A DNA stretch of 64,000 bases from the NCBI GenBank assembly GCA_963716175.1, contig OY970296.1, forward strand, positions 2,784,001-2,848,000, in the 5' to 3' direction. The notes below the pieces were generated by a model, which did no database searches, had not been told where the DNA came from, and was given only the letters and a program-made list of their open reading frames with translations. Positions 18,824 to 32,369 of the stretch are shown piece by piece. The first letter of the stretch is position 1, and each line of letters opens with the position of its first letter. Origin of the DNA: an uncultured Armatimonadetes bacterium. Its GTDB lineage: Bacteria; Armatimonadota; Hebobacteria; Hebobacterales; Hebobacteraceae. The position numbers and the translations under genes are program-made.

Positions 18824-18999
18824 CCCGGCGGTCGCCCGGATTCGGGATCTTAGCAGCGGGGTTCTGTGCAGAATACGTATCTACAAATCAGCACGGGGGG
18901 CGCGCCCCGCCTGAGATCGTCGCCCTGCATGCCCTGAGGGGCTCGCAGAACCGGCAATCGCAGTTGCCGGTTGCAGGTCACAACCGAAAGGACAGAGGA

Positions 19000-19362
19000 A
19001 TGAGCATGGCGAGGGATGAGCAATACCGGCGGCGGCGCAAGGCGGAGGCGGAGAGGCTAAGGCTGACCGGCAAGGTTGGCGCGCTCGAGCTGGAATTGCA
19101 GGATCTGGCGGCGGACCTGGCCGAGGCCGAGGCGGCCGCCAAGGCTGACCTAGATCAGCGGCGCCGCCGATTGCAGGAGCCGGACGCCAGCATCCGCCGG
19201 CTGCGAGTGCTGGGTGAAGAACTGCCCTCGCCCCTGGGAAGGGTGCTGACCTGCCATGACCGGAAACACCACACCCTGGAGAGGACCCGGCAGCGGTTGG
19301 CCGGAGTGGAAGAGCAACTCGGCGAGATAGCCCGGGCTGACCAGGCGGGAAGGGAGCAGTAG
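19000..19362 (+). CDS. Coiled-coil hypothetical protein
   Basis: RBS GAGG and a heptad-rich charged sequence. Confidence 0.45.
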   Translation: MSMARDEQYRRRRKAEAERLRLTGKVGALELELQDLAADLAEAEAAAKADLDQRRRRLQEPDASIRRLRVLGEELPSPLGRVLTCHDRKHHTLERTRQRLAGVEEQLGEIARADQAGREQ

Positions 19363-19643
19363 TGATGCTGCGTGATGGGGACGAAGAGGAATGAGAATAC
19401 GATGCATCCGGTTGTGGTGGTCATCTTGCCCTGAGACCGTTGCACCCTTGCTCTGAACATATCTCCTGGTGTAGTGTGGGCACTCCATTGCGCCGGAGGA
19501 TGAACCCACGTGTGGTGGCCAGACTGCGACGGGGCTGTTCACAGTGGAGCGGCAAGATGCTGTCGCCCCAGGGCTTCTGGCCCGTTCTGACGGTGCAGAT
19601 CAGTTTCGGAACACTGCCTGCACATCCTTGCGCTCTGACCCCC

Positions 19644-19955
19644 TCAGAGCAACTCCCGCGCCGGAAGGCTGAACACCTTCAGGCCCAGAGTGTGTTGCTG
19701 CCGGCTGCTATGCAGCGCCGTCAGCGTCTCCAGTACGGGCCCGACCTGCACTTGGTGAACGCACGCGTAGATCATGGTGCAGTCCCCTGGCCAGACCGGT
19801 GTCCCTTCGTGCCGTCCGGTCTCGCCGCACCCGGTGACCCCCCGGTGGATCGTATAGCGGTCCACGCCCGCAGCCTGGATGCGTCGGAGCACTTCATTGC
19901 ACGTTCCGCTCTCGCAGATGATGATCAGGAACTCCCTGTCTCTATCCTCTGGCAT
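19644..19955 (-). CDS. P-II-superfamily (PG0541-like) protein
   Basis: RYTIHRGVTGCGETGRHEGTPVWPG motif. Confidence 0.75.
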   Translation of the reverse strand: MPEDRDREFLIIICESGTCNEVLRRIQAAGVDRYTIHRGVTGCGETGRHEGTPVWPGDCTMIYACVHQVQVGPVLETLTALHSSRQQHTLGLKVFSLPARELL

Positions 19956-20191
19956 CTTCTCTCGCCTCCCTGGCGTCGGCGCTGCCGGCCAGCCGCTCTT
20001 TCCCAGACTGAAGCGCGAGCCGCCAAGCAATGCGACGCTCAGTGGCCGTACCGTCTGAAGTGCCCAAGAGCCGCTGAGACCGTGCTTCTGGGCCCCCAGC
20101 ATTCGTCTCGGCGATTCTGCGGCAGGAACGCGGCCGCTTTCGACTCCGGATCACAGCATGAAGAGCGACGTGCCCTTCGGCCCCCGCCGGC

Positions 20192-20431
20192 CTAAGCGGG
20201 CGGGGGATTGGCGGGCGCGTAGCTGCGGCAATAGGTGCTTGCGGATGCGTAGGTCGGGTAGTGAGATTCGCCCGGCGCGATGGGCCGGTTGACGGCTTTG
20301 CAGAGCGAGACCCTAACGTCGTAATGGGCGCAGTCCGTGCAACGCCGCAGCACCGTCCGACAGCTGGAGCAGGTGGCAGTCTTCTCGTCCGCGCTCTGCA
20401 CCTCTTTGCACTTCGGGCAGGTGATCCTCAT
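20192..20431 (-). CDS. Small multi-CxxC zinc-binding protein
   Basis: CPKC, CSSC, CTDC plus two further Cys; RBS GAGGTG. Confidence 0.7.
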   Translation of the reverse strand: MRITCPKCKEVQSADEKTATCSSCRTVLRRCTDCAHYDVRVSLCKAVNRPIAPGESHYPTYASASTYCRSYAPANPPPA

Positions 20432-20850
20432 CTGCTCTCACCTCTCTCTCATCGCATGGGCTGGTTACATCGAATCGGCACTGTCATTCTCCCAGGCCTT
20501 AAGCAGAGACTCGGTCCTTACCATGCCATGCCAGCAGTCCAGGAAGGCGGGTTCCCGCAGCCGAGCGACGAGTGTGCCAGTACCTCGCTATTGAGCCGCC
20601 CAGAGGCGACTCCGTTGCTGACGAGCCTTGGGGGACGGCGGCCACCGTGGCGGCAGGAAAGGCCACATGGGCCACGAGCCGGATGAGAAGACGAAACCAA
20701 CGCAAGAGATCATGGGGCCGACGGGACTGAAGAAGGTCGACGCGTCTCTGACCCGGCTGCCGTGCAGGTCTCATGCCACGTCTCCAAGGATCGGCTGGCC
20801 TGCTCAGCGGGGTGACTCAGAGGTACCACAGAACGACGTGCATCCGCCCT

Positions 20851-21002
20851 TAGTGTACCAGAAATAGGCCGTGGCACAAGCGGCATTCCCTGGTGTAGCG
20901 TCGGCTTCGGTTCCGCACTAGGGTGAGCCCGCGTGCGGGTGTCGAGCGCGCGTGAGACCGCTTTGAGGGCACTCTGGGGCACGGATGAGTTTCTGGACAC
21001 CA
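20851..21002. mobile_element. MITE-like mini element
   Basis: Inverted ends TAGTGTACCAGAAAT and (reverse complement) TGGTGTCCAGAAACT. The same terminus motif recurs at 6040, 9190, 10460 and 14132. Confidence 0.45.
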
Positions 21003-21190
21003 CGCGTTTTCATAGATGCCGTTCCGGGCCCATCAGAACAGGGGCGGAACAGTCCTGTGGCGCTCGGTCCGTGTCAGGCGGGCCAGCATAGGCTGGCGCT
21101 GGCAGATCGGCGACTCCTCGGCTGGAGGAGCCTGTCCCTGGGGTGAGTGCTGAGCATGGGCTGGCAACTGCGCCCGCGGCCTGATTCCTG

Positions 21191-21526
21191 AACTGGCCCC
21201 AGGGGCCTCGCGCCAGGCGGTAGGGGCCTGGGCAAGCGAATCGGGCTTGACAGGCGCGGGTGCAGGTAGTAGCGTGAGTCTGGCCTGATGCAGGCAGGTT
21301 GGCGGCCCATGGGTGAGTCGGCGGCCTTGCTGGTTGTGTTTGCGAGGGCCTCTTTGGCAGAAGAAGGCGCGCGTGAGCGCGCCTTTTTGCATGGCCGGAC
21401 GAAATCGGATCTGCTCAAGAGACATAGCGATGAGCGGGGAGGAGGTGTAGCAGGGAGAGGAGAGGATTGGCCTTGATCGTCTGACCTGGCTGGGAAGGTA
21501 CGAGACCTTTTGCAGGGAGGAGTGTG
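21191..21526 (+). promoter_or_regulatory. Conserved promoter + leader with internal terminator (copy 1)
   Basis: TTGACA(21247)-17-TAGCGT and terminator AAGGCGCGC-GTGA-GCGCGCCTTTTT (21364-21388). About 15 mismatches in 336 nt versus 29676-30011. Confidence 0.8.
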
Positions 21527-22558
21527 ATGACAGGAAGAGGGAGAGGATTCACGCTGATCGAGTTGCTGGTCGTGATCGCGATCATTGCGATCCTCGCAGC
21601 CATGCTGTTCCCAGTGTTTGCGCGAGCGCGCGAGTCGGCTCGCAAGATCCAGTGCTTATCGAACGTGAAGAACATCGCCATGGCGTTCCAGATGTACCTC
21701 ACCGACTTCGAGCGGCTGCCGCCCAGTGAGCACAGTGCCGAGGCTAGAGCGTGGGTCGACGACTATTGCAGCCCAGACTGTGACCAGGCTTTGCTGTGCC
21801 GCATGACCGCGGCAAACCCTTATCTGCGGATGCCGGTGATCCTGGACGAGTACGTCAAGAACCGCGACGTATGGCGGTGCTCGAGCGCGAAGTTTGTGAA
21901 CAGCACAATCGCTATCAATACCGGCATGCCTACTTGGATGGCGTACTTCGCCAGGGGCATGGCCGACGACATGTGCCCCAGGCCCAGGCCGTGCACGAAT
22001 GTGTTCCCCCCTGGATGGGGTGGTCTCGCCACCGACACCCTCGCGCAGGGCTGGGACAACGGCTGTGGACTCGGCAGCGGGGCCTTTGACCAGAGCCTCG
22101 CCACTCCGTACTACGACCGCGACCTGAAGATGAATCAGATCGATGACGTGACGAAGCGGGTGGTCGTCGGGGACGGAGGCGTGGACCTCGAACCCTGGCG
22201 CACCTCCGGGTTCGCCTATCCCGATTACTCTCGATTTGATCAGCTCCTCCCCGCCTGCGGCAGCAGCGGCAACTGCTCGACTGACCCGTCCTGTGGCAAC
22301 GCCGCGGTGGCCGCGACCTGTAGCCCCCTGAGCCTGTGTTTTGACGGCGATGGAAAATTCGGATGGGATGCAAACTACAGACAGACCTTTGCCCGCCACA
22401 TGGGCGGCTCCAACCTCGGCTTCGCCGATGGCCACGCCGGGTGGTTCCCCGCTGAGAAGATCCTCTTCGGCGGCTGGAACAACTCGGGCTATGCCACGGT
22501 GCCGTTGGTGTTCGAGGGTTTGGAGTGCTGCTTCTTCCCGACCGACCAGCCCAGATAA
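21527..22558 (+). CDS. Prepilin-type N-methylation / DUF1559 / H-X9-DG protein
   Basis: [23 protein letters not shown] and [14 protein letters not shown] motifs. Confidence 0.95.
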
Positions 22559-22566
22559 CATTCGCG

Positions 22567-22592
22567 GTCGGAGCGCCCCCGGGCGCTCCGAC
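22567..22592 (+). terminator. Hairpin after prepilin gene
   Basis: GTCGGAGCGCCC / GGGCGCTCCGAC inverted repeat. Confidence 0.5.
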
Positions 22593-22879
22593 GTGATGAA
22601 GGACCCTGCCGTGGAGACGCACTACCCATCAGTGCGCCGTGCCCGCCTTTGCCAAGGCGGGTAAGCTTGTCGGCCGGGGATGGACATGAGCAAAGCTGCG
22701 GGTGTCAAATGGCGATGGGACATCCCTGAGCGGCTTCTGGGCTTGCGTGGTAGGCGGGGTCGGTCTATGGTGTGGGACCTTTCAGCACCTCTTCGGGCGG
22801 AACGGACGGCGCTGTGCCGCTACGCGTCGGGCTGCTACTTCCCGCTTGTCGCGATAGGACAGCCGTTTCTCGCGTCATA

Positions 22880-23010
22880 ACATTGGTTCGCGCGCGGCGA
22901 GTCTCAGTGTCGGACAGGCACGCAGCCAGCTCATCCTCCCATACGGCGAAAGCGTTCTTTGGGCCGACTACCAGAAGGCGTGTACTGCGGATGGGCTGCC
23001 CTACGGTCTT
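22880..23010 (-). pseudogene. SNF2-like helicase fragment
   Basis: LLVVGPKNAFAVWEDE resembles SNF2 motif Ia. Confidence 0.4.
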
Positions 23011-23819
23011 CAGCACTCGGAGTCGAATGCCCGAAATATCTGTAGGCGTTCGCCAAGCTCACGTATCTCTTGGTCGAGCTGGATATCGAAGGCACTGCCA
23101 ATCGTCCCAAGATGCACGAGCAGGAGGGCACACGCGGTTCCCACGGCGCGGAATGCAGCTTGCCAACTCGGTCCAAACCACACGGCAACCGGCGCGGTGT
23201 CAGTCGGCGACGCCTTGACCAGGTAACGCGCTAGTGCTATGGGAGCTGCATGAACGCCTGGGCAGAGCTTCCGATAGACACCGTACCAGATGTCCGCCTC
23301 AAGCTCGGACAGTTTCACACGCTCCTCCATCTTGATATCTCTCCAGTACCTACGCTTGCCCCTATGCTTGCCACGCTGCTGCCATGCGAGGGGGTCATCC
23401 GGAGTGGGCACGCCCACAATGTCGGTCGGCCGTAGTGGCAGTTCCCCACGACCCTGTTTCTTCTCTTCGGGCATGTCTATCTGCCGCTCGATCTCTTCGA
23501 TGTAAAGGTATAACGCCGTGCGGTTGTTCCTGACTGCACGCGCGTTCACAACCGCCTCCATCATTTGACGCAATAGGACATCCGCCTCCAAACCCCATCC
23601 CTCGCGGCAAAGAACAACCGCCCCCTCGAAGGAGCCATGGATCACTGAAGTCAAGTTCTGCAGAATCACACCGAGGATTGCATCCATGCTTCCGGGCGGG
23701 AACTGCTGCGGCATGGCATCGATGGCAAAGCGCAGCACGGCGCGGGATTCAGTCGCGACCGCGAGCGCGCTGTCGATCTCCGCCGAGTCTCTTGCTTCGT
23801 CAGGAGCATTCTGCGACAT
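23010..23819 (-). CDS. DUF5677-like protein
   Basis: A.VLLRQMME and YRKLCPGVH motifs. Confidence 0.65.
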   Translation of the reverse strand: MSQNAPDEARDSAEIDSALAVATESRAVLRFAIDAMPQQFPPGSMDAILGVILQNLTSVIHGSFEGAVVLCREGWGLEADVLLRQMMEAVVNARAVRNNRTALYLYIEEIERQIDMPEEKKQGRGELPLRPTDIVGVPTPDDPLAWQQRGKHRGKRRYWRDIKMEERVKLSELEADIWYGVYRKLCPGVHAAPIALARYLVKASPTDTAPVAVWFGPSWQAAFRAVGTACALLLVHLGTIGSAFDIQLDQEIRELGERLQIFRAFDSEC

Positions 23820-24802
23820 GCGAGTGCCCAGGTGAGTACCTGCATTCCGTGGAGCAAGAGCCTGCCCCTGCCAGCGCGCATCCCTGCGCCCTGCTGGCCT
23901 TCCGAGATCTCCAGCGCCAGAGCCAGGCGGCGCGATTCACCTGTCTTGACCTTCGCTCTCTGCGCCTCCCCCCGGGGCAGTCACAATCACCGCAGCCGCT
24001 TTCGGTTCCCTGCCGTCCTCACCGCGGAGCAGGATGCGGCTATCAAGTGCGCTTGGGACACAGGCGGGGGGACCAAGCCAACGCTCTCCATCTGATCGAC
24101 GGTGGCACAACACCGGGGATGGCCGGGACGGGAACGGCCCCGGCTCACAGGATTGCCAAGCAGACACACTCTCCACCGTAGACAGGCGCCCGAAGGCGCC
24201 GCCCAAAGGTCTCATATGGTAGAATGATCCTCGCCCGCGCACAAGCTCAGGAGCCCCTCAGGGGTGTCCCATCGCTACTTGACACCGACACGGTGGGCCG
24301 CGATCGCTCCTTCCGGGTACACGACGGCCCAGCGTCGATGGCGGCAGTATGACCGCCACTCCTGTGAACCAATGTCCTAAGCCAGGTCGGCCGTCCGAAA
24401 CAGCCTAGGACGTTCTCGGTCACTGGTTCTGCAGATCGTCCCGCAGCAGCTGAAGCGCGCGTGAGAAGACGCTACGGGTGATGTGCCAGACCCTGGGCCA
24501 CTCCCCAGGTCCGACTGGATATGGGAAGCCCAGACGCTTAAGCTCTGCGATTGCACGCGAGCCGCCCTCATCTGGTGGGTGCGTAGGTGGCAGATTGCGC
24601 AGATGCTGCACTCTCCGCATTGCGGCCACCGCCTCAGTGCCGTGCGAGTACCCCAGGTGCTGGACATAGGCCTCCAGAATACTGAGGGTGTGTCCGGCCT
24701 TGATGACATCAGCCACGTCGCTCGGCAGCTCCGCCCGCATCGCTCGCTCGTTGAGCTTCGCCATCAACTCCGCGATTCCCATCACTCGGCTGTGGTAGTC
24801 AG

Positions 24803-26256
24803 GATGGTGTCCCGTTCATAGTTGAAGGTTGAGGCGGCTCTCTCCAGCCCGGTTCTGATAGAATCGGGTAACCCAAAGCTTGAAAAGGAGAGAACCGCCG
24901 TGAGAAGAGAGTATCAGGTTGTGGGTCGCAAGGGTAGTGCCGCGCTGCGCCAGTTTCTGGCGAGGGAGGGGGCGGCGCTGGTGCCGATGATGGAACTGCT
25001 GGAGGCGGGGCAACTCGCCGTGGAAGAGCTAGTGGGGGAGATGGGAAAGGCGGCGCTGGAGGCGGTGCTGCTGATCTCAGCCGAAGAGGTGGCGGGGCCG
25101 GCGCATCCGGGCCGGCCGGGCGGGGTGATCCGGCGCCATGGCGAGCAAGGCGGGATAGTCGCGCTGGGGGGCCAGAAGGTGCGGGTGAGCAAGCCGCGGT
25201 TGCGCCGGAAGGGCGGCGGGGAGGGGGCTGAGGTGGCGGTGCCGGCTTATGCCGCGATGCAGTCCGATGAGAGGCTGCGGGAGCGGATGCTGTCGATTGT
25301 GATGCGAGGGGTGAGCACGCGCCATTACCAGGAGGTGGTGCCGGAGCTGGCGGAGCGCTGCGGGGTATCGCGCTCGGCGGTGAGCCGGCAGCTGCAAGAG
25401 GCGAGTGCGGAGGCGCTGCGGGAGCTGTGCGAGCGGCGCTTCGATGACCTTGACCTGTTGGTGATCTACCTGGACGGCAAGCACTTCGGGGGCCACCAGG
25501 TGGTGAGTGCCATCGGAGTGGACGCAGCGGGCTGCAAACACGTCCTGGGCCTCACCGAGGGGGCCACGGAGAACGCGGTGGTAGTGAAGGGACTGCTGGA
25601 GGAGCTGGTGGAGCGAGGGGTGCGCCCGGAGCGCAGACGGCTGTTGGTGATTGATGGCTCGAAGGCGTTGCGCAAGGCGATTGATGATGTCTTCGGCAAG
25701 CAGCATCCGGTGCAGCGCTGCCAGGCGCACAAGCGCCGGAACGTGCTGGGCTACCTGCCCAAAGAGATGCAGGGGCAGGTGGCGGCGGCGCTGCGGGCGG
25801 CGTGGAAGCTGGAGCCCAAGGAAGGGATGGCGCGGCTGCACACCCAGATCGAGTGGCTGGAGCGAACTCATCCCAAGGCCGCGGCCAGCCTGCGGGAGGG
25901 CTTGGAGGAGACCTTCACCATCGCCCGACTGGGGCTGTCGCCGATGCTGCGCACCTGCCTGACCACCACCAACATCATCGAGAGCTCGCTCTCGGGGGTG
26001 GAGGGTCGCACCGGCCGCGTCACCCGCTGGCGCTCGGGAGAGATGGCCTTGCGCTGGGCCGGGGCGGCCGCGCTGGAGACCGAGCGCAGCTTCCGCAAGA
26101 TCATGGGGCACAAGGGCCTCTGGATGCTGAAGGCCGTGCTGGACGAAGGCCAGTCGCTTAGCGACCGGTCGCAGATCTCAGTTGACGAGGGCCGTGTCGC
26201 GGCCTAAGATACGCGAGAGGGACCGCCCAACCTTACACTACGGGCGGGACATAATC
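24803..26256 (+). mobile_element. IS256-family element
   Basis: TIRs GATGGTGTCCCG.. / GATTATGTCCCG..; 9-bp TSD GGTAGTCAG at 24794-24802 and 26257-26265. Confidence 0.92.
24900..26207 (+). CDS. IS256 (Mutator) DDE transposase
   Basis: GVSTR, IYLDG, VIDGSKAL, QRCQAHK and TTNIIES motifs. Confidence 0.95.
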   Translation: MRREYQVVGRKGSAALRQFLAREGAALVPMMELLEAGQLAVEELVGEMGKAALEAVLLISAEEVAGPAHPGRPGGVIRRHGEQGGIVALGGQKVRVSKPRLRRKGGGEGAEVAVPAYAAMQSDERLRERMLSIVMRGVSTRHYQEVVPELAERCGVSRSAVSRQLQEASAEALRELCERRFDDLDLLVIYLDGKHFGGHQVVSAIGVDAAGCKHVLGLTEGATENAVVVKGLLEELVERGVRPERRRLLVIDGSKALRKAIDDVFGKQHPVQRCQAHKRRNVLGYLPKEMQGQVAAALRAAWKLEPKEGMARLHTQIEWLERTHPKAAASLREGLEETFTIARLGLSPMLRTCLTTTNIIESSLSGVEGRTGRVTRWRSGEMALRWAGAAALETERSFRKIMGHKGLWMLKAVLDEGQSLSDRSQISVDEGRVAA

Positions 26257-27184
26257 GGTAGTCAGCGCCGTCGGTGCAGTCCCCGCGCAGGCGTTTTAGA
26301 GGCCCAAATGAGACCAAGTCGAACAGCCTGAACCGGTGCACCCTCTCCCACTCGACGTTCAGCGCCGACAGCAGATCCTCCACATCGATGTCTCCCGTCG
26401 CCTGTCTCGACGTCGGGCTCTCGATCAGCTGGGGCTCAAAGCATATCGGAGCACCTGGTCCCGCGCGGCATCGGTAGGGAATGAGTGCACCCGGATCCTT
26501 TCCCAGTTCACAGAGGCCGCTACACTCACGCCGGTGAAGGCCTGCCTGGTCCGTCGCGATAGGGTGGGTCTTGAGGTGACGAACGTGAGCGCACCTCTCC
26601 CAAGGGTCAGGTACAGCGCATGTGCCGCAGACAGCCAGGGTCGTCTCGGGCGTCCCCTTCGAGTCCAACGGGCAGATGAGATCGCCATTGGACTGCTTGC
26701 GGAAATCACATGTTCGCGGTAGGCACCCGACGAGCAGCTCTCCCTTATCGGAGGTGATCATGCAATCGCTGTCTGAGACGGAGCCGGAGTCGAGTTCGAG
26801 TATTGTCTGCTTCACAGCGTATTGTCGAAGCGCGCGGGACCACTTCACACTAAGTGTCTCATCCTCAGGCTGTGACCCAGCCTTCAGGCTCTCACCCAGT
26901 TCCCAACTAGTCAGGAACCACTTCGTGGCCAACCCCTGGGAAGCTGCCGGTGAACTTACTTCCAGGACGAAGCTGAGCCAGAGAAGTTTCCGTAGATGTC
27001 GCGGCTGATCGACCTGGCCTCGAACGGAGTACTCGCGGCCGTCTGCCGTCAGGTATCTGAACTCAACTGCACAGGAAAGGCTCGCCGGATTCATATCGCC
27101 CTAAGCTAGGCTTCTGTTCTGGTGATGTCAGTTCGTTAGGTCACGGTCGCCTCCTTCCCTCATCACTGGGATCACGGCTGTCAG

Positions 27185-28271
27185 TGTCGGCCGCCGGGCT
27201 AGACTGTACCACGCGTAGTCGCCCCATGTGTACCACCTGATCGCCGGGGGTGGGTACCACCTCACAGTCGGGGGGTGGGTACCACCCCGCCGGCGCCAGC
27301 TGGGTCGTTGCCACAAGGCATTCCCTCCTGACCGATTCCTCGGTCGGGAGGAGATATGGAGCGACTCAGCGTGCATCTCATCGTGGACATCCCACGGCCG
27401 GCTCCGAAGGAACGGCCGGAGCCGGTATGTATCGGTTGCGCGCCGGCCAGTCGGTGCGCGCCATCTGTCGGGACCTGAGACATTCGCGTCGTACGGTCCG
27501 CCGCTACCGGAAGCTGGCGGCGGCGAAAGGCTATCTGGACCCTTCCCGGCCCTTGCCGGAGGCCGCGGAGGTGCTCGCTGGCCTGGGGCCGGTCTGCTCG
27601 CCGCCGAGCAGTAATGTCTCGAGTGTGGAGCCCTATCGAGAGGTGGTGCAGAGCCTGCTGGATCAGGGGATCGAGATGGTGGCGATCCACCAGCGGTTAG
27701 TGCGCCACCACGGCTACTGCGGCTCGTACAGCTCGGTGCGCGGCTTCGTGCATCACCTCCGGCCCCGCGGCAAGGAGGCGGTGGTGCGCCTGGAGATGCC
27801 CCCAGGCCAGTGCGCCCAGGTGGACTTCGGGGGCGCGGGCAAGCTGCGAGACCCCGCCACGGGGCGGCTGCGGCAAGCCTACTGCTTCGTGATGACGCTG
27901 TGCTACTCCCGGCACCAGTACGTGGAGTTCGTCTTCGATCAGAGGATGGAGACCTGGATCGGCTGCCATCAGCGCGCCTTCGAGAGTTTCGGAGGCGTGC
28001 CCAGGGAGCTGGTCATCGACAATGCGCCGGAGGCGCACAAGTCTCAAGGCCGCGGTGCTGCGGGCGGCGCTGGAGGACCAGAAGCTGGCCGAGCCCTACC
28101 GGAAGCTGGCTCAGCACTACGGCCTCCTGGTGCACCCCTGCCGCCCGCGCTCGCCCCAGCACAAGGGGATCGCGGAGAATGGCGTGCATTACGTGCAGCG
28201 GAATCTGCTCGCCACGGAGCAGCCCGGGGATCTCGCCGAAGCGAATCGCGCCGCGCGCAGCTGGGTCATGG
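27185..28271 (+). mobile_element. Truncated IS21-family element (istA pseudogene)
   Basis: TGTCGGCCGCC end with four GTACCAC boxes. IstA motifs PG..AQVDFG, L.YSR, DN..LKAAV and P.HKG.AE. Frameshifted and cut by an rve element. Confidence 0.85.
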
Positions 28272-29676
28272 TGCCTGTGTCGGGGCCCTATAATACCGCC
28301 ACGACAGGGGTTTCCTCAAGTGCCCATGCCGTAGCCTTTCCTCAGGCAGCTAGCTCATAGACGGTGATCCGCTGCTCAGGGAAGTGCCGCAGCCGGATCG
28401 GGTGCCGTAGCGTTTTCGCCGAGCGGTCGGGCTTCTGCCAGTTGCCTGCTTCGTAGATCATCGAAGGAGTCGCACCGCCCAACCGCCGATGGCATCGGTG
28501 TTGGTTGTAGTACACCTCGAAGTCCATCAGCAGTTCGCCCAGGTGATCCAATCCCCGGATGAGGGGCACCCGCGCCAGCCACTCCCGCTTGAGGGTCCAG
28601 ATGAGACGTTCCGTCACCGCGATAGAACCATGCTTGCCCACTGCGCCGAGGCGGTGCTTGATGTCCCAGTCCCGGAGCAGCTTGGCGAATCCCTCGGCTG
28701 TGAAGATGCCCTCCTGGTCGCTGACCAGATGCTTAGGGGGCCCGTGGTGCAGGAAGGCCTCTTCCAGCACCTCAACCACCCAGCTGGCATTGGAACCTTC
28801 AAGCGGGACGACGGCCATCACCGCCCGGGAGAAGTGATCAATGGCTACCAATACCCAGGTGGGCCAGACCCCCCAGAGCCACACCCGGGTGCGGTCCACC
28901 GACCATACGTGGTTGGGATAGCGGGCGATGGTCTGCCTGGGCTCTCCAGGTTCCTTCGCCTGGGCCGGCGTTGGAGTCGAGGCCTCGGGCCTGGGACGGA
29001 GGAGGATGTCCCGAACAGTGGTCGCCGAGATGAACACTCCCAGCGCCCACAGCGTCATCGCCGTCCGATGCCGGCCCCACATGGGGTTGCGCGTGAAGAT
29101 GTCCCAGATGAGCTCTGCGATCTCCCTGGGCGTCTTGGTGACGGGTTCGGCAGCCCTAATGCGACCTCCAACCTTGCCTTCTTGGAATGCCTTGAGCCAG
29201 CGCTGAACGCTTGAGGGCGCTACCCCGAAGGTCTCCTTCACCCTCCGCTTCGGGATCTGGTAATACTCGATCAGCCAGAGCAGGCGCAGCCGGTCCACAA
29301 GAGGATAGGGCCGTCGGGGCCTTTCTTCCCCCAGCCGCTTCGCCATTGCCTCCAGACGTGCATCCCGAAACGCCACCGCATCCTCCAGCACCATCACGCG
29401 TGCCTCCAGCTGTGCCACTCGTCCCGCCTCCCCGCGGGCGCAGGCCCGTTCCAGGCTGAGACCTCTACTGCGGGCCGCCCACCGGGCGCTTACCACCAGA
29501 GCACGCACGATCAACGACACCGACGCCTCATAGATCTCCGCCGAGCTGACTCCCACAGAAAGAGAGAACGGCGCCCGAAGGCGCCGCCCACCGGTCCCAG
29601 ATCATACTGGAAGGAAGTCAACCGAGACAAGCCCGAGACGCTCTCAGGGCGGTCCTAAGGGCCGCCAACACCCGCA
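28272..29676 (-). mobile_element. rve/integrase-core (IS481/IS3-like) element, copy 1
   Basis: ORF 28342-29556 with HTH, WSVDRT, IDHFSR, SDQE and TERL motifs. Ends TGCCTGTGTCG / TGCGGGTGTTG. Confidence 0.85.
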
Positions 29677-30011
29677 ACTGGCCCCAGGGTCCTCGCGCCA
29701 GGCGGTAGGGGCTTGGGCAAGCGGATTGGTCTTGACAGGCGCGGGTGCAGATAGTAGCGTGAGTCTGGCCTGATGCAGGCAGGTTGGCGGCCCATGGGTG
29801 AGTCGGTGGCCTCGCTGGTTGTGTTTGCCAGGGCCTCTTTGGCAGAAGAAGGCGCGCGTGAGCGCGCCTTTTTGCATGGCCGGACGAAACCGCATCTGCT
29901 CAAGAGACATAGCGATGAGCCGGGAGGAGGTGTAGCAGGGAGAGGAGAGGATTGGCCTTAATCGTCTGACCTGGCCGGGAAGGTACGAGACCCTTTGCAG
30001 GGAGGAGTGTG
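29676..30011 (+). promoter_or_regulatory. Conserved promoter + leader with internal terminator (copy 2)
   Basis: TTGACA at 29732 and terminator at 29849-29873; near-identical to 21191-21526. Confidence 0.8.
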
Positions 30012-31106
30012 ATGACAGGAAGAGGGAGAGGATTCACGCTGATCGAGTTGTTGGTGGTGATCGCGATTATTGCGATTCTGGCAGCGATGCTGTTCCCCGT
30101 GTTTGCGCGAGCGCGTGAATCGGCGCGCAAGATTCAATGCCTGTCGAACATCAAGAACCTCGCCATGGCCGTGCAGATGTACCTGACGGACTACGACCGG
30201 CTGTGGCCAAAGGAGCACCGTCCGGAGGTGATCGCCGGGTCGCATCCGGATAACCCCGATTCGACCAACGGTTGCGCGATGTCGGCCGGCACCAGGATGA
30301 ACCCGTACCTGCAGCCGCCGGTGATCCTGGATGAGTACATCAAGAACCGGGACGTGTGGAGTTGTCCGTCCGCTCGCGCCAGCGCCTCCTGGTCCATCCT
30401 GAATCCGCTGGGGATGGACTGGTGGGTACGGGTCAACACGGTGGACCCACTCAGCTGGGGCGAGGTGGGTGTGGGGCAGTGCGGTGGCGGCAACTTCCCT
30501 CCGGGTTGGGGCGGCGACGTGACCGACACCATTGCTCAGGGAAGGAGCAGCGGGGATAGTCCGGGTGCCTTCCACAACTCGCTCAACGTGATCGCCCTGC
30601 GCGAGGTCAAGACCGCCGAGATAGGCGATCCGGCGAAGTACGTGATCGCGGGCGAGTGCCAGATCGGCCAGCCCGTCTGGGGCCCCCTGGACGTGGCCTA
30701 CCCGGATGCCTCTGCCATGTGCGGGGCCAACCCGGGCTCGCTTGCTTGCTGCGGCGGCAACTGGGTGGACTGGGCAAACTGCTCCTGGAGCGTGGACTGC
30801 GGCGCCGCACACGACCTCAATTACGCCGACACCGAGATCCGGAAGGAGTACGGGAGGCCGCGGCACATGGGCGGCAGCAATGTGGGCTTTGCCGACGGCC
30901 ACGCCTCCTGGTACAACTCTGAAGACATCCTCGCCAACTACGCGCCGGACCAAGGCGTCGTCGACGGCGGAGCCTTCCGTTACCAGTGCTACGGCGTCCC
31001 GGGGGCCGGCGCGGCGCGGGCAAAGCGGGACACCTGGGGCGGCTTCCAAGGCGGCATCTGCGGGATGTGGGGCGCCTTCGGGCTTGTACCACAGGGCTGC
31101 GGCTAG
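30012..31106 (+). CDS. Prepilin-type N-methylation / DUF1559 / H-X9-DG protein
   Basis: [26 protein letters not shown] and [14 protein letters not shown] motifs. Confidence 0.95.
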
Positions 31107-31142
31107 CCAGCCGCCACCGCATGAGGCCGGATTGAGACACCG

Positions 31143-31172
31143 GACGGCCCCGGAGATGTTTCCGGGGCCGTC
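31143..31172 (+). terminator. Hairpin after prepilin gene
   Basis: GACGGCCCCGGA / TCCGGGGCCGTC inverted repeat. Confidence 0.5.
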
Positions 31173-31241
31173 TCTCCGTGAGGTGACCTCTTCCACCGAG
31201 GTCGCCCGCGGTCTCGCGACCGGAGGGCGGCGACCGAGGAG

Positions 31242-32369
31242 GTGAGTGCGATGGAGGGACCGCGGGCGCCCCGGCGAGGTGAGCTAGCCCAGGTGGCGCA
31301 ACTGCACCAGGCAGTATTCGGCGTGATCCGGCGGCCGGAACCAGAACAATCCCCTCCGCCGGCCCGCCTCCGCGCGGTACGGGGGAAGCGGGTGCTGATC
31401 GTGGCCGAGGAGGGCCGACCCGTGAGCCGCGCCGCGGTGTACTACGATACCGCCTCCATGTTCGGTTGCCGGGTGAGGACGGCCAGTATCAGTGGGGTGT
31501 GCACCCATCCCGAGTGCCGGGGGCGCGGCTATGCCAGTCGCATCCTCGAGCGCTGTCTCTCGGACGCCGTTGCTCGCCGAGCGCGCGTGTTCATTGTTTC
31601 CGGCGATCGCGGTCTCTACCAGCGCGTTGGGTGCCGCGCGGTAGGTGCAATGCGGAGCATGACGCTCCGGGCAGCGCAGACATGGCCGGCCGCGGATAGG
31701 GTCTCTGTAAGGAAGGCCGGGCTCGGGGACCGGCCCATGGTGCGCGCGCTCTACGACCGGGAGCCGCTGCGCTTCTGCCGGTGCGCGGATGGCTGGGCGG
31801 AGTTGGAGGCGGAGTGGCAACGAGGGTGGCCCGAGACCTGGATCGTCGAACGGCGCGGCGTTGCCCTTGCCTATCTGTGGCTTGGGCCCCTGTGGAGCCC
31901 GCCTCGCCAGGGCGTGCGTGAGGTCTACGAGTACGCGGGGTCTCGCCTCGCCCTCGTGGAGGCGCTGCCACGGCTGATGGCAGTGATGAACCTTCGTGAG
32001 CTGTCGCTCGCCTTCTCCGCCCTGGAGGAAGAGCTGTCGTCACTACTGGCCGAGCGCGGAGTTCGCACTGAGGCCGCCACGCTGCCCGGCACGCACCGCC
32101 TGCTCGATCTGCCCGGACTCATGCGGGACCTGACACCATATCTCGCGGAGCGGCTCCCGAAAAGCATCCAGTGCGGTCTGTCCTTCGGCCAGGACCGCGA
32201 TCGATGCTGCTTCTGCCTGGGAGAGGAGCGGGCCGACCTGGAGCTAGGGGCCTCGGTGGAACTGGTACTGGGCAGTCCCCGGGCACCGGTGGTAGGACGG
32301 CAACTGGGAGAGGTGTTGGCGCAGGTATTCCCGGTGCCGTTCCCCACACCTGGGATGAACATGGTGTGA
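31242..32369 (+). CDS. GNAT acetyltransferase (Eis-like architecture)
   Basis: VCTHPECRGRGYA and GLYQRVG motifs. Confidence 0.85.
   Translation: MSAMEGPRAPRRGELAQVAQLHQAVFGVIRRPEPEQSPPPARLRAVRGKRVLIVAEEGRPVSRAAVYYDTASMFGCRVRTASISGVCTHPECRGRGYASRILERCLSDAVARRARVFIVSGDRGLYQRVGCRAVGAMRSMTLRAAQTWPAADRVSVRKAGLGDRPMVRALYDREPLRFCRCADGWAELEAEWQRGWPETWIVERRGVALAYLWLGPLWSPPRQGVREVYEYAGSRLALVEALPRLMAVMNLRELSLAFSALEEELSSLLAERGVRTEAATLPGTHRLLDLPGLMRDLTPYLAERLPKSIQCGLSFGQDRDRCCFCLGEERADLELGASVELVLGSPRAPVVGRQLGEVLAQVFPVPFPTPGMNMV

Follow-up and report, generated by a model that had tools for sequence, protein, structure and literature searches.

We describe a cassette of about 400 bases that stands in three near-identical copies in front of three very different genes for prepilin-like proteins of the DUF1559 family. 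Two of these genes, called here gene A and gene B (with cassette copies A and B), lie in the window, that is, the whole stretch of 64,000 nucleotides that was analysed. It comes from an uncultured Armatimonadetes bacterium (assembly GCA_963716175.1, contig OY970296.1, positions 2,784,001 to 2,848,000; G000:C1:2784001-2848000 in our genome coordinates). Copy C lies elsewhere in the same genome, about 2.7 Mb from the window copies; the genome is a single contig of 4.56 Mb with 66% G+C and a completeness of 90.85%. The cassette comprises an upstream region, a predicted promoter, the 5' untranslated region (5' UTR), the start codon and the first 14 codons. Its presence at three loci is probably the outcome of ectopic homologous recombination (gene conversion), which would have copied it onto three members of a family of 47 DUF1559 prepilin-like genes.

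From their profile matches and motifs, genes A and B can both be classed as encoding prepilin-type DUF1559 / H-X9-DG proteins. Gene A (21524..22558, forward strand) encodes 344 amino acids from a GTG, with the ATG at 21527 as the likely start, and gene B (30009..31106, forward strand) encodes 365 amino acids from GTG. The N-terminal prepilin cleavage/methylation motif (G/FTLIE; PF07963, cut-off 21.2 bits) scores 33.9 bits in A and 33.8 bits in B, and TIGR02532 (cut-off 16.3) scores 32.3 and 32.1 bits. PF07596 (DUF1559) reaches 39.4 bits in A and 27.6 bits in B against a gathering score of 23.3, in matches limited to profile positions 2-42 and 2-86, respectively, of 268. The C-terminal H-X9-DG profile (TIGR04294, cut-off 19) scores 21.6 bits in gene B; it was not reported for gene A at E 0.001 or better, where the H-X9-DG motif was read directly in the translation. 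The two proteins are identical over 47 N-terminal residues and share 40% identity over the 275 aligned residues beyond this block.

Counted ungapped at a constant offset of 8485, the two loci differ at 15 of 333 non-coding bases (21191-21523 against 29676-30008; 95.5% identical) and at none of the first 39 coding bases from the GTG (21524-21562). The following 102 bases (21563-21664) hold 14 differences, in 13 codons and all synonymous, and the 100 bases after 21664 hold 33. At the other end, 28 of the 41 bases upstream of 21191 differ. Both edges of the identity are sharp, and a repeat search of the window recovered the pair as a 300-nt repeat of 96% identity. The leader is far more similar than the coding block that it runs into: its 15/333 differences (a divergence of about 0.046) compare with 13/38 at the third positions of codons 15-52 (Fisher p 2e-7), and within the coding part codons 1-14 show 0/14 third-position differences against the same 13/38 (p 0.011). 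This contrast exceeds chance. A sequence-only reading of this DNA, the starting point of our analysis, had described 336 nt of non-coding DNA with about 15 differences, an identical run of 39 coding nt, about 16 mostly synonymous changes in the next 100 nt or so, highly divergent gene bodies, and a non-coding leader more conserved than the conserved coding block adjoining it. Our counts reproduce these observations, the figures to within a few bases.

Copy A extends over 21167..21565 (forward strand), 21565 being the last base of A that matches B before the first difference after the 39-nt block. Copy B (29676..30050, forward strand) is 96% identical to A over 375 nt, and copy C (G000:C1:115275-115673, reverse strand) is 95% identical to copy A from 21167. 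Overall, the three copies share 95-96% identity over 375-399 nt. They differ pairwise at 14-16 of 315 positions, scattered along their length (leader divergence 0.044-0.051), and have in common an identical stretch of 57 bases at the joint. When the 600 bases upstream of all 47 family members were compared all-against-all, a near-identical leader was found only in A, B and C, the next best pairs reaching 70-77% identity. The 40 related genomes searched yielded no match to the leader, and an exact-pattern scan of the genome collection gave none either; one metagenome contig (L021) did match.

The 5' edges differ between the copies. Homology between A and C begins at 21167, 24 bases further 5' than homology between A and B (21191). 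That of copy B starts exactly at the end of an insertion sequence (IS) of the rve type (28341..29676, reverse strand; transposase gene 28342..29556; Pfam rve 54.9 bits). Other genomic copies of this IS are 73-86% identical with the same ends, and their matches stop at 29676/29677. Because copy B lacks its 5' bases and its edge is the end of the IS, we conclude that a later insertion of this element shortened it. The 21 bases found upstream in A and C do not occur elsewhere in the window, including the far side of the IS cluster.

The 3' edge lies inside a block that the whole family shares. Genome-wide, 47 reading frames encode the same 45-residue N-terminal block (N-block), give or take a residue; its 45 codons occupy 21545..21679 in gene A (forward strand), where the joint falls at 21565/21566, and 30030-30164 in gene B. 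At the nucleotide level, paralogs differ in this block at a mean of 22 of 135 bases (84% identity on average), and the codon differences summed over all pairs of the 47 amount to 18466 synonymous and 2469 non-synonymous. Since the block is common to 47 paralogs, the run of 47 residues in which A and B agree is a trait of the gene family and does not point to close kinship. A second genus of the same taxonomic family (G011, loci L022-L051) has the N-block identical over all 45 residues in 20 of 42 matches, so it is frozen at the protein level across genera while synonymous sites vary. Among the 30 of these 42 paralog matches that were examined for it, no near-identical shared leader was found; the best pair reached 84% over 320 nt, possibly reflecting an upstream gene. 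Within our genome, five members have short or frame-shifted frames after the N-block, with 9-167 residues of body (G000:C1 3190833, 112973, 4059206 on the reverse strand, 169965 on the reverse strand and 66706 on the reverse strand), and are probable pseudogenes. At G000:C1:3199385-3199916 there are plus-strand, sense-like copies of the start of the N-block, whose wording (…TTGTTGGTGGTG) is the rare synonymous variant of genes B and C. That region has no TTGAC[AG]-N16-18-TAnnnT match and, judged by eye without alignment, no cassette-like leader.

Beyond the block, the three genes are distant. For each of A, B and C, the other two stand between 25th and 39th place when its 46 paralogs are ordered by similarity of the body, with identities of 33-40%. 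The genome holds no near-identical body donor for any of them, the nearest paralog bodies being 45-58% identical. In a maximum-likelihood tree of 42 bodies, built without the five shorter than 240 amino acids, A belongs to a supported clade of seven rows and C to a supported clade of four rows within one of eight; B is placed elsewhere. The approximately unbiased (AU) test rejects a clade of the three bodies (log-likelihood 89 lower, p 0.0015), as well as A with C (p 0.020) and B with C (p 0.031). The sequence-only reading had proposed to compare leader and body trees, and their histories are indeed discordant. Each body has its own relatives in public metagenomes, with identities of 82% for A, 81% for B and 85% for C; no paralog in the same genome comes nearly as close. 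These external relatives carry other signal peptides (e.g. MRRRKG, MARRRG and MHTRHKG), and among 204 fetched proteins only A and B have MTGRGRG. Distant bodies, each with its own external relatives, indicate that the bodies are old, separate lineages and that the cassette is a recent addition.

The position of the breakpoint can be read from the codons of the N-block. From codon 15 onwards, gene A departs from both of the others. B and C are identical to codon 30 save one Gly-to-Arg change in the signal peptide, and they have rare synonymous variants in common. Third positions begin to differ at codon 16 in the pairs A-B and A-C and at codon 31 in B-C, and synonymous divergence over the 45 codons of the block is 0.60 (A-B), 0.64 (A-C) and 0.19 (B-C), against about 1.0 in the bodies. 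A breakpoint test, likewise proposed by the sequence-only reading and run here as MaxChi with permutation, gave a signal at codon 14/15 of A against both B (p 0.004) and C (p 0.036). The 3' joint is a homologous one.

That reading had also suggested recombination in the N-terminal motif, with bodies swapped behind a common leader. The place is borne out by the joint in the conserved block, the discordant histories and the breakpoint at codon 14/15. The direction is probably the reverse: given that there is no body donor in the genome, that the closest body relatives (81-85%) are external and that there are three copies of the leader, the leader cassette most likely moved onto the bodies, which represent three old lineages.

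The leader itself contains several putative regulatory elements, given here in the coordinates of copy A. After about 80 bases of upstream DNA, which form the 5' part of the cassette, comes a sigma-70-like promoter, TTGACA-N17-TAGCGT (21247..21275, forward strand, with hexamers at 21247-21252 and 21270-21275; 29732-29760 in copy B), from which we predict a 5' UTR of about 245 nt. Its second hexamer matches the consensus at only 3/6 positions, for which reason a consensus promoter scanner made no call, and the differences in this element among A, B, C and L021 are confined to the spacer. A match to TTGAC[AG]-N16-18-TAnnnT is found 260-335 nt upstream in 12 paralogs. Next stands a GC hairpin, GGCGCGC-GTGA-GCGCGCC, followed by T5 (21366..21388, forward strand; 29851-29873 in copy B), which resembles a terminator. 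At the corresponding position, 137-232 nt upstream, 9 of the 47 paralogs have a comparable hairpin with a T-run, its stems altered yet pairing. A common leader design starts with TTGACA-N17-TAnnnT some 300 nt upstream; about 110 nt further on comes a hairpin of the GGCGCGC/GCGCGCC type, which has a T-run and is followed by TGGCC. This design recurs upstream of the paralogs at G000:C1 371160, 1867161, 4391305, 2091156, 255661, 112973, 1002983 (reverse strand) and 349549 (reverse strand), as well as in A, B and C. The genes that bear it belong to different body clades, and the design is a candidate attenuator or small-RNA unit. The hairpin with T-run is present in only 1 of the 30 paralogs examined in G011 and is not conserved in that genus.

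Further downstream, about 80 nt before the start codon, lies a purine box, GGAGGAGGTGTAG (21438..21450, forward strand; 29923-29935 in copy B), complementary to the 3' end of 16S rRNA, which reads GATCACCTCCTTTC. The sequence GGAGGTG occurs 60-200 nt before the N-block in 36 of the 47 paralogs, when about two would be expected. The consensus of the box, GAAAGGAGGTGA, is complementary to the last 12 or so bases of 16S rRNA, and in 34 of 47 paralogs the box stands 85-135 nt before the N-block. A start codon follows at 4-12 nt in only 3 of 36 cases, so the box does not serve initiation. Outside this genome, 21 of the 30 G011 paralogs examined have it, as do 6 of 7 in other relatives. Genome-wide, 463 of 592 AGGAGGTG sites fall outside the classical ribosome-binding position, and only 29 of these 463 precede an N-block; a 16S-complementary box may thus not be specific to the DUF1559 family. 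The cassette ends with a GGAGG ribosome-binding site, the start (21524/21527), the signal peptide MTGRGRG and the first mature residues.

Could these elements account for the similarity without any copying? In such a scenario A, B and C would be old duplicates whose leader has been kept near-identical, as a structured regulatory RNA (attenuator- or riboswitch-like), by very strong purifying selection, as the sequence-only reading had offered as its alternative. The recurrence of promoter, terminator-like hairpin and 16S-complementary box in paralog leaders, with hairpin stems that vary but continue to pair, speaks in its favour, as do the promoter hexamers and the hairpin, unchanged in A, B, C and L021. 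The rate of the leader does not. L021 represents the copy C locus in a sister strain (orthologous, with 96.9% identity over 1643 bases including flanks), and the two differ at 12 of 339 leader bases (3.5%), against 31 of 926 (3.35%) in adjoining intergenic DNA outside the leader and 5 of 376 (1.3%) in coding DNA. The leader hence evolves like neutral DNA, within a comparison of 12 against 31 differences on one orthologous contig that could miss moderate constraint. Strong constraint also sits poorly with the absence of the leader from the other 44 paralogs, among them the nearest relatives of each body, and from the 40 genomes, and it would need a separate explanation for the lack of synonymous changes in codons 1-14.

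The leader likewise lacks the marks of a conserved structured cis-regulatory RNA, which would be conservation above the neutral rate together with a family match or a significant fold. An Rfam scan of 19000-32000 returned only two chance-level matches, both outside the leader, the fold energy of the whole leader is not unusual (z -0.75), and the duplex of its first part with the rest of the mRNA is no better than in shuffled sequences (47% of shuffles equal it). Reading frames inside the leader were considered as genes and rejected, with synonymous to non-synonymous ratios of 1:5, 2:9 and 4:7 and no Pfam match. Taken together, we consider very strong constraint on the leader RNA an unlikely explanation of the shared cassette; some ordinary functional constraint is likely, given that its elements recur in paralog leaders. 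The 4-5% divergence between the copies, set against the rate measured with L021, places the event a little before the split from the sister strain. Over 315 shared columns L021 has 12 differences to C and 9 to A, and the informative sites split 2 against 2, a conflict that could reflect a later exchange between copies or noise.

Under non-programmed ectopic gene conversion, the simplest account, the events would run as follows. A 3' end inside the shared N-block of one paralog would pair with the block of another, and DNA would then be copied upstream through the leader, until the far end is sealed without homology. This would leave a 3' joint within the 135-base block; it falls at codon 14/15 of gene A and, between B and C, close to codon 30. 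Copying would predate the split of the sister strain, and the copies have since drifted by about 4-5% at a near-neutral rate. ISs near B and C might have supplied the breaks, yet they flank the cassette inconsistently. Other traces of exchange may exist in the family. In four further paralog pairs (G000:C1 1944388/349549, 1203138/1205420, 4392554/4325499 and 1867161/1787111), identity of 74-100% extends over most of the coding sequence, from N-block to stop codon, and the flanks cannot be aligned; one pair is a patchwork of segments of 96-100% and 74-84% identity, and their bodies show synonymous divergences of 0.31-0.72. These pairs suggest either that conversion was confined to coding sequence or that they are old duplicates whose flanks have decayed, and exchange limited by coding homology may be common among DUF1559 genes.

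We also weighed the possibility that the leader DNA travelled to new sites with an IS that lay beside it at the original gene. Mobile elements are certainly at hand: the rve-type IS adjoins copy B exactly at its 5' edge, some 200 nt upstream of copy C there is the remnant of a transposase gene from the same family, and three IS elements separate A and B. Besides the IS adjoining copy B, these are an IS256-type element (24801..26256, forward strand) with a Mutator-family transposase (24822..26207; PF00872, 104.8 bits), which has 99.9-100% identical copies elsewhere in the genome, and a fragment of an rve-type IS (27185..28266, forward strand; Pfam rve 43.3 bits on the reading frame 27250..28293), with a 77% identical copy at G000:C1:1494561-1495611. 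However, the 3' joint is in frame within the conserved block and falls at different codons between copies, which requires homologous recombination in any case. The IS at B truncates the cassette and hence arrived later, there is no transposase remnant upstream of A, and at C the remnant and the cassette are 200 nt apart, with unrelated DNA between them. Transport by an IS is for these reasons quite unlikely. Just upstream of gene A, a 2.1-kb segment with a P-II-like gene and a small Cys-rich reading frame (18850-20960) is 99.4% identical to an inverted copy at G000:C1:4504641-4506751 and 92-97% identical to part of G000:C1:2899033-2900330, and is a recent segmental duplication. Between A and B, a DUF5677 gene (23010..23819) is flanked by inverted 82-nt repeats (22701-22782 and 24205-24286, 73% complementary), with similar stretches at several other genomic sites; gene and repeats may form a small mobile element.

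Programmed variation, in which a dedicated recombinase or directed gene conversion actively switches bodies behind one expression site, would also place the same leader on different bodies. A large family with an invariant 5' block usable as a recombination site would suit it, as would the mobile-element genes nearby. Yet all 47 paralogs are in open frames, with the block preceded by a start codon and a ribosome-binding site of the GGAG type (judged by eye), and 36 of the 47 have their own upstream box, so they are not silent promoterless cassettes. A and B lie in direct orientation and no invertase was seen; among 12 neighbouring reading frames, the only recombinases found by Pfam are IS transposases. 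The copies, moreover, have drifted by 4-5% and predate the strain split, and no body donor is present in the genome. A switching system therefore appears very unlikely here. That the copies or their joints are chimeras of the assembly of a repeat family is extremely improbable, for although the 57-base identical stretch sits at the joint in all three copies and public contigs break there, the 14-16 scattered differences in 315 positions are not those of collapsed duplicates, the independent contig L021 confirms copy C with its upstream flank, exact-match public contigs cover parts of leader A and of body A separately, and even with mispairing three leaders and three unrelated bodies would remain.

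Several observations weigh against gene conversion of the cassette, or leave parts of it less secure. The AU test does not reject A and B as sisters (p 0.42), so that for this pair the case is carried by the contrast in rates, and the MaxChi signal between B and C is not significant (p 0.11). No homology is detectable at the 5' joint, a point against simple two-ended conversion, and no Ku gene to account for the sealing step was found in the genome. Any of the copies may have been the donor. A search of public sequencing runs listed ten DNA metagenomes, each with at most 0.29 of the sampled words, and no RNA run. The public contigs, which are short and come from four runs, show no chimeric or alternative joint but do not span the joint of leader and body (L021 ends before the start codon), so the pairing of leaders and bodies is that of one assembly. 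The neutral rate comes from a single orthologue, and the promoter hexamers and hairpin have stayed invariant. Finally, the synonymous divergence of the four pairs similar only in their coding regions shows that those events were not recent, and decay of their flanks is an alternative. Gene conversion nonetheless remains the explanation that we consider probable.

A bolder extension of it would see the N-block as a built-in adaptor, through which any of about 47 bodies can be re-plugged into other regulatory circuits. The population would keep shuffling, and the cassette would be one fixed outcome carrying an undescribed class of leader, in which a promoter, a short terminated RNA and a non-initiating 16S-complementary box set the expression of the family. 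We regard this as unlikely. More modestly, the three unrelated bodies are now likely to be expressed under one regulatory input. Regulation would thereby have been rewired within a large family of paralogs, with no new sequence needed, by copying 400 bases through a shared coding block. The three loci constitute natural constructs with the same leader and different bodies, and together with the leader elements that recur across the family, they offer a way into the expression of the functionally uncharacterised DUF1559 genes in Armatimonadota. No new mechanism is revealed; this is a familiar kind of mosaic evolution.

Variable bodies behind one promoter and a conserved N-terminal segment are well known from the antigenic variation of pilE/pilS in Neisseria and the Q/I pilin inversion of Moraxella. 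In both systems exchange takes place in or near the conserved N-terminus, with silent promoterless cassettes or a site-specific invertase and switching at high frequency. Here, in contrast, each paralog comes with a start codon and an upstream region of its own, there is no invertase, and the copies have drifted by 4-5%. With the DUF1559 / H-X9-DG proteins of Planctomycetota, the family described here shares the prepilin motif, a conserved helix, a variable body, the C-terminal H-X9-DG and its organisation in large paralog families. A limited literature search found no account of shared leaders or of recombination within the DUF1559 family.

One element of the cassette, though not its sharing, has a possible counterpart in the STAB-SD of Bacillus thuringiensis cry3A, a 5' mRNA stabiliser formed by a 16S-complementary, Shine-Dalgarno-like sequence at -129 in a long leader that does not serve initiation (PMC4113751). 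The upstream box of the DUF1559 leader is likewise 16S-complementary, far from the start and non-initiating, and by this analogy looks like a STAB-SD-like element, which may or may not stabilise mRNA. However, the nuclease blocked in Bacillus is RNase J1, and RNase J was not detected in this genome, which is 90.85% complete (the cut-off of TIGR00649 is 400 bits, and the best score was 21).

Among described cases, the closest is that of babA, babB and babC in Helicobacter pylori, paralogous genes for surface proteins with a conserved 5' region that undergo intragenomic gene conversion. Homologous recombination 60-240 bp from the start codon produces chimeras there, in which the body of one gene follows the regulatory 5' portion of a second and is regulated differently as a result (PMC4552749). 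A conserved block serving as the homology and differing histories on the two sides of the breakpoint are found in both cases. Strain-to-strain variation and a phase-variable repeat, as in bab, are not part of the case presented here, in which the one sister-strain contig has the same copy C leader. The part copied here, in contrast, extends to about 360 nt before the start codon and takes in a whole promoter. What is distinct in the present system is the copied unit, a whole promoter and leader, and its three copies on three lineages of the 47-member DUF1559 family, with bodies 33-40% identical, in an environmental bacterium of the Armatimonadota.

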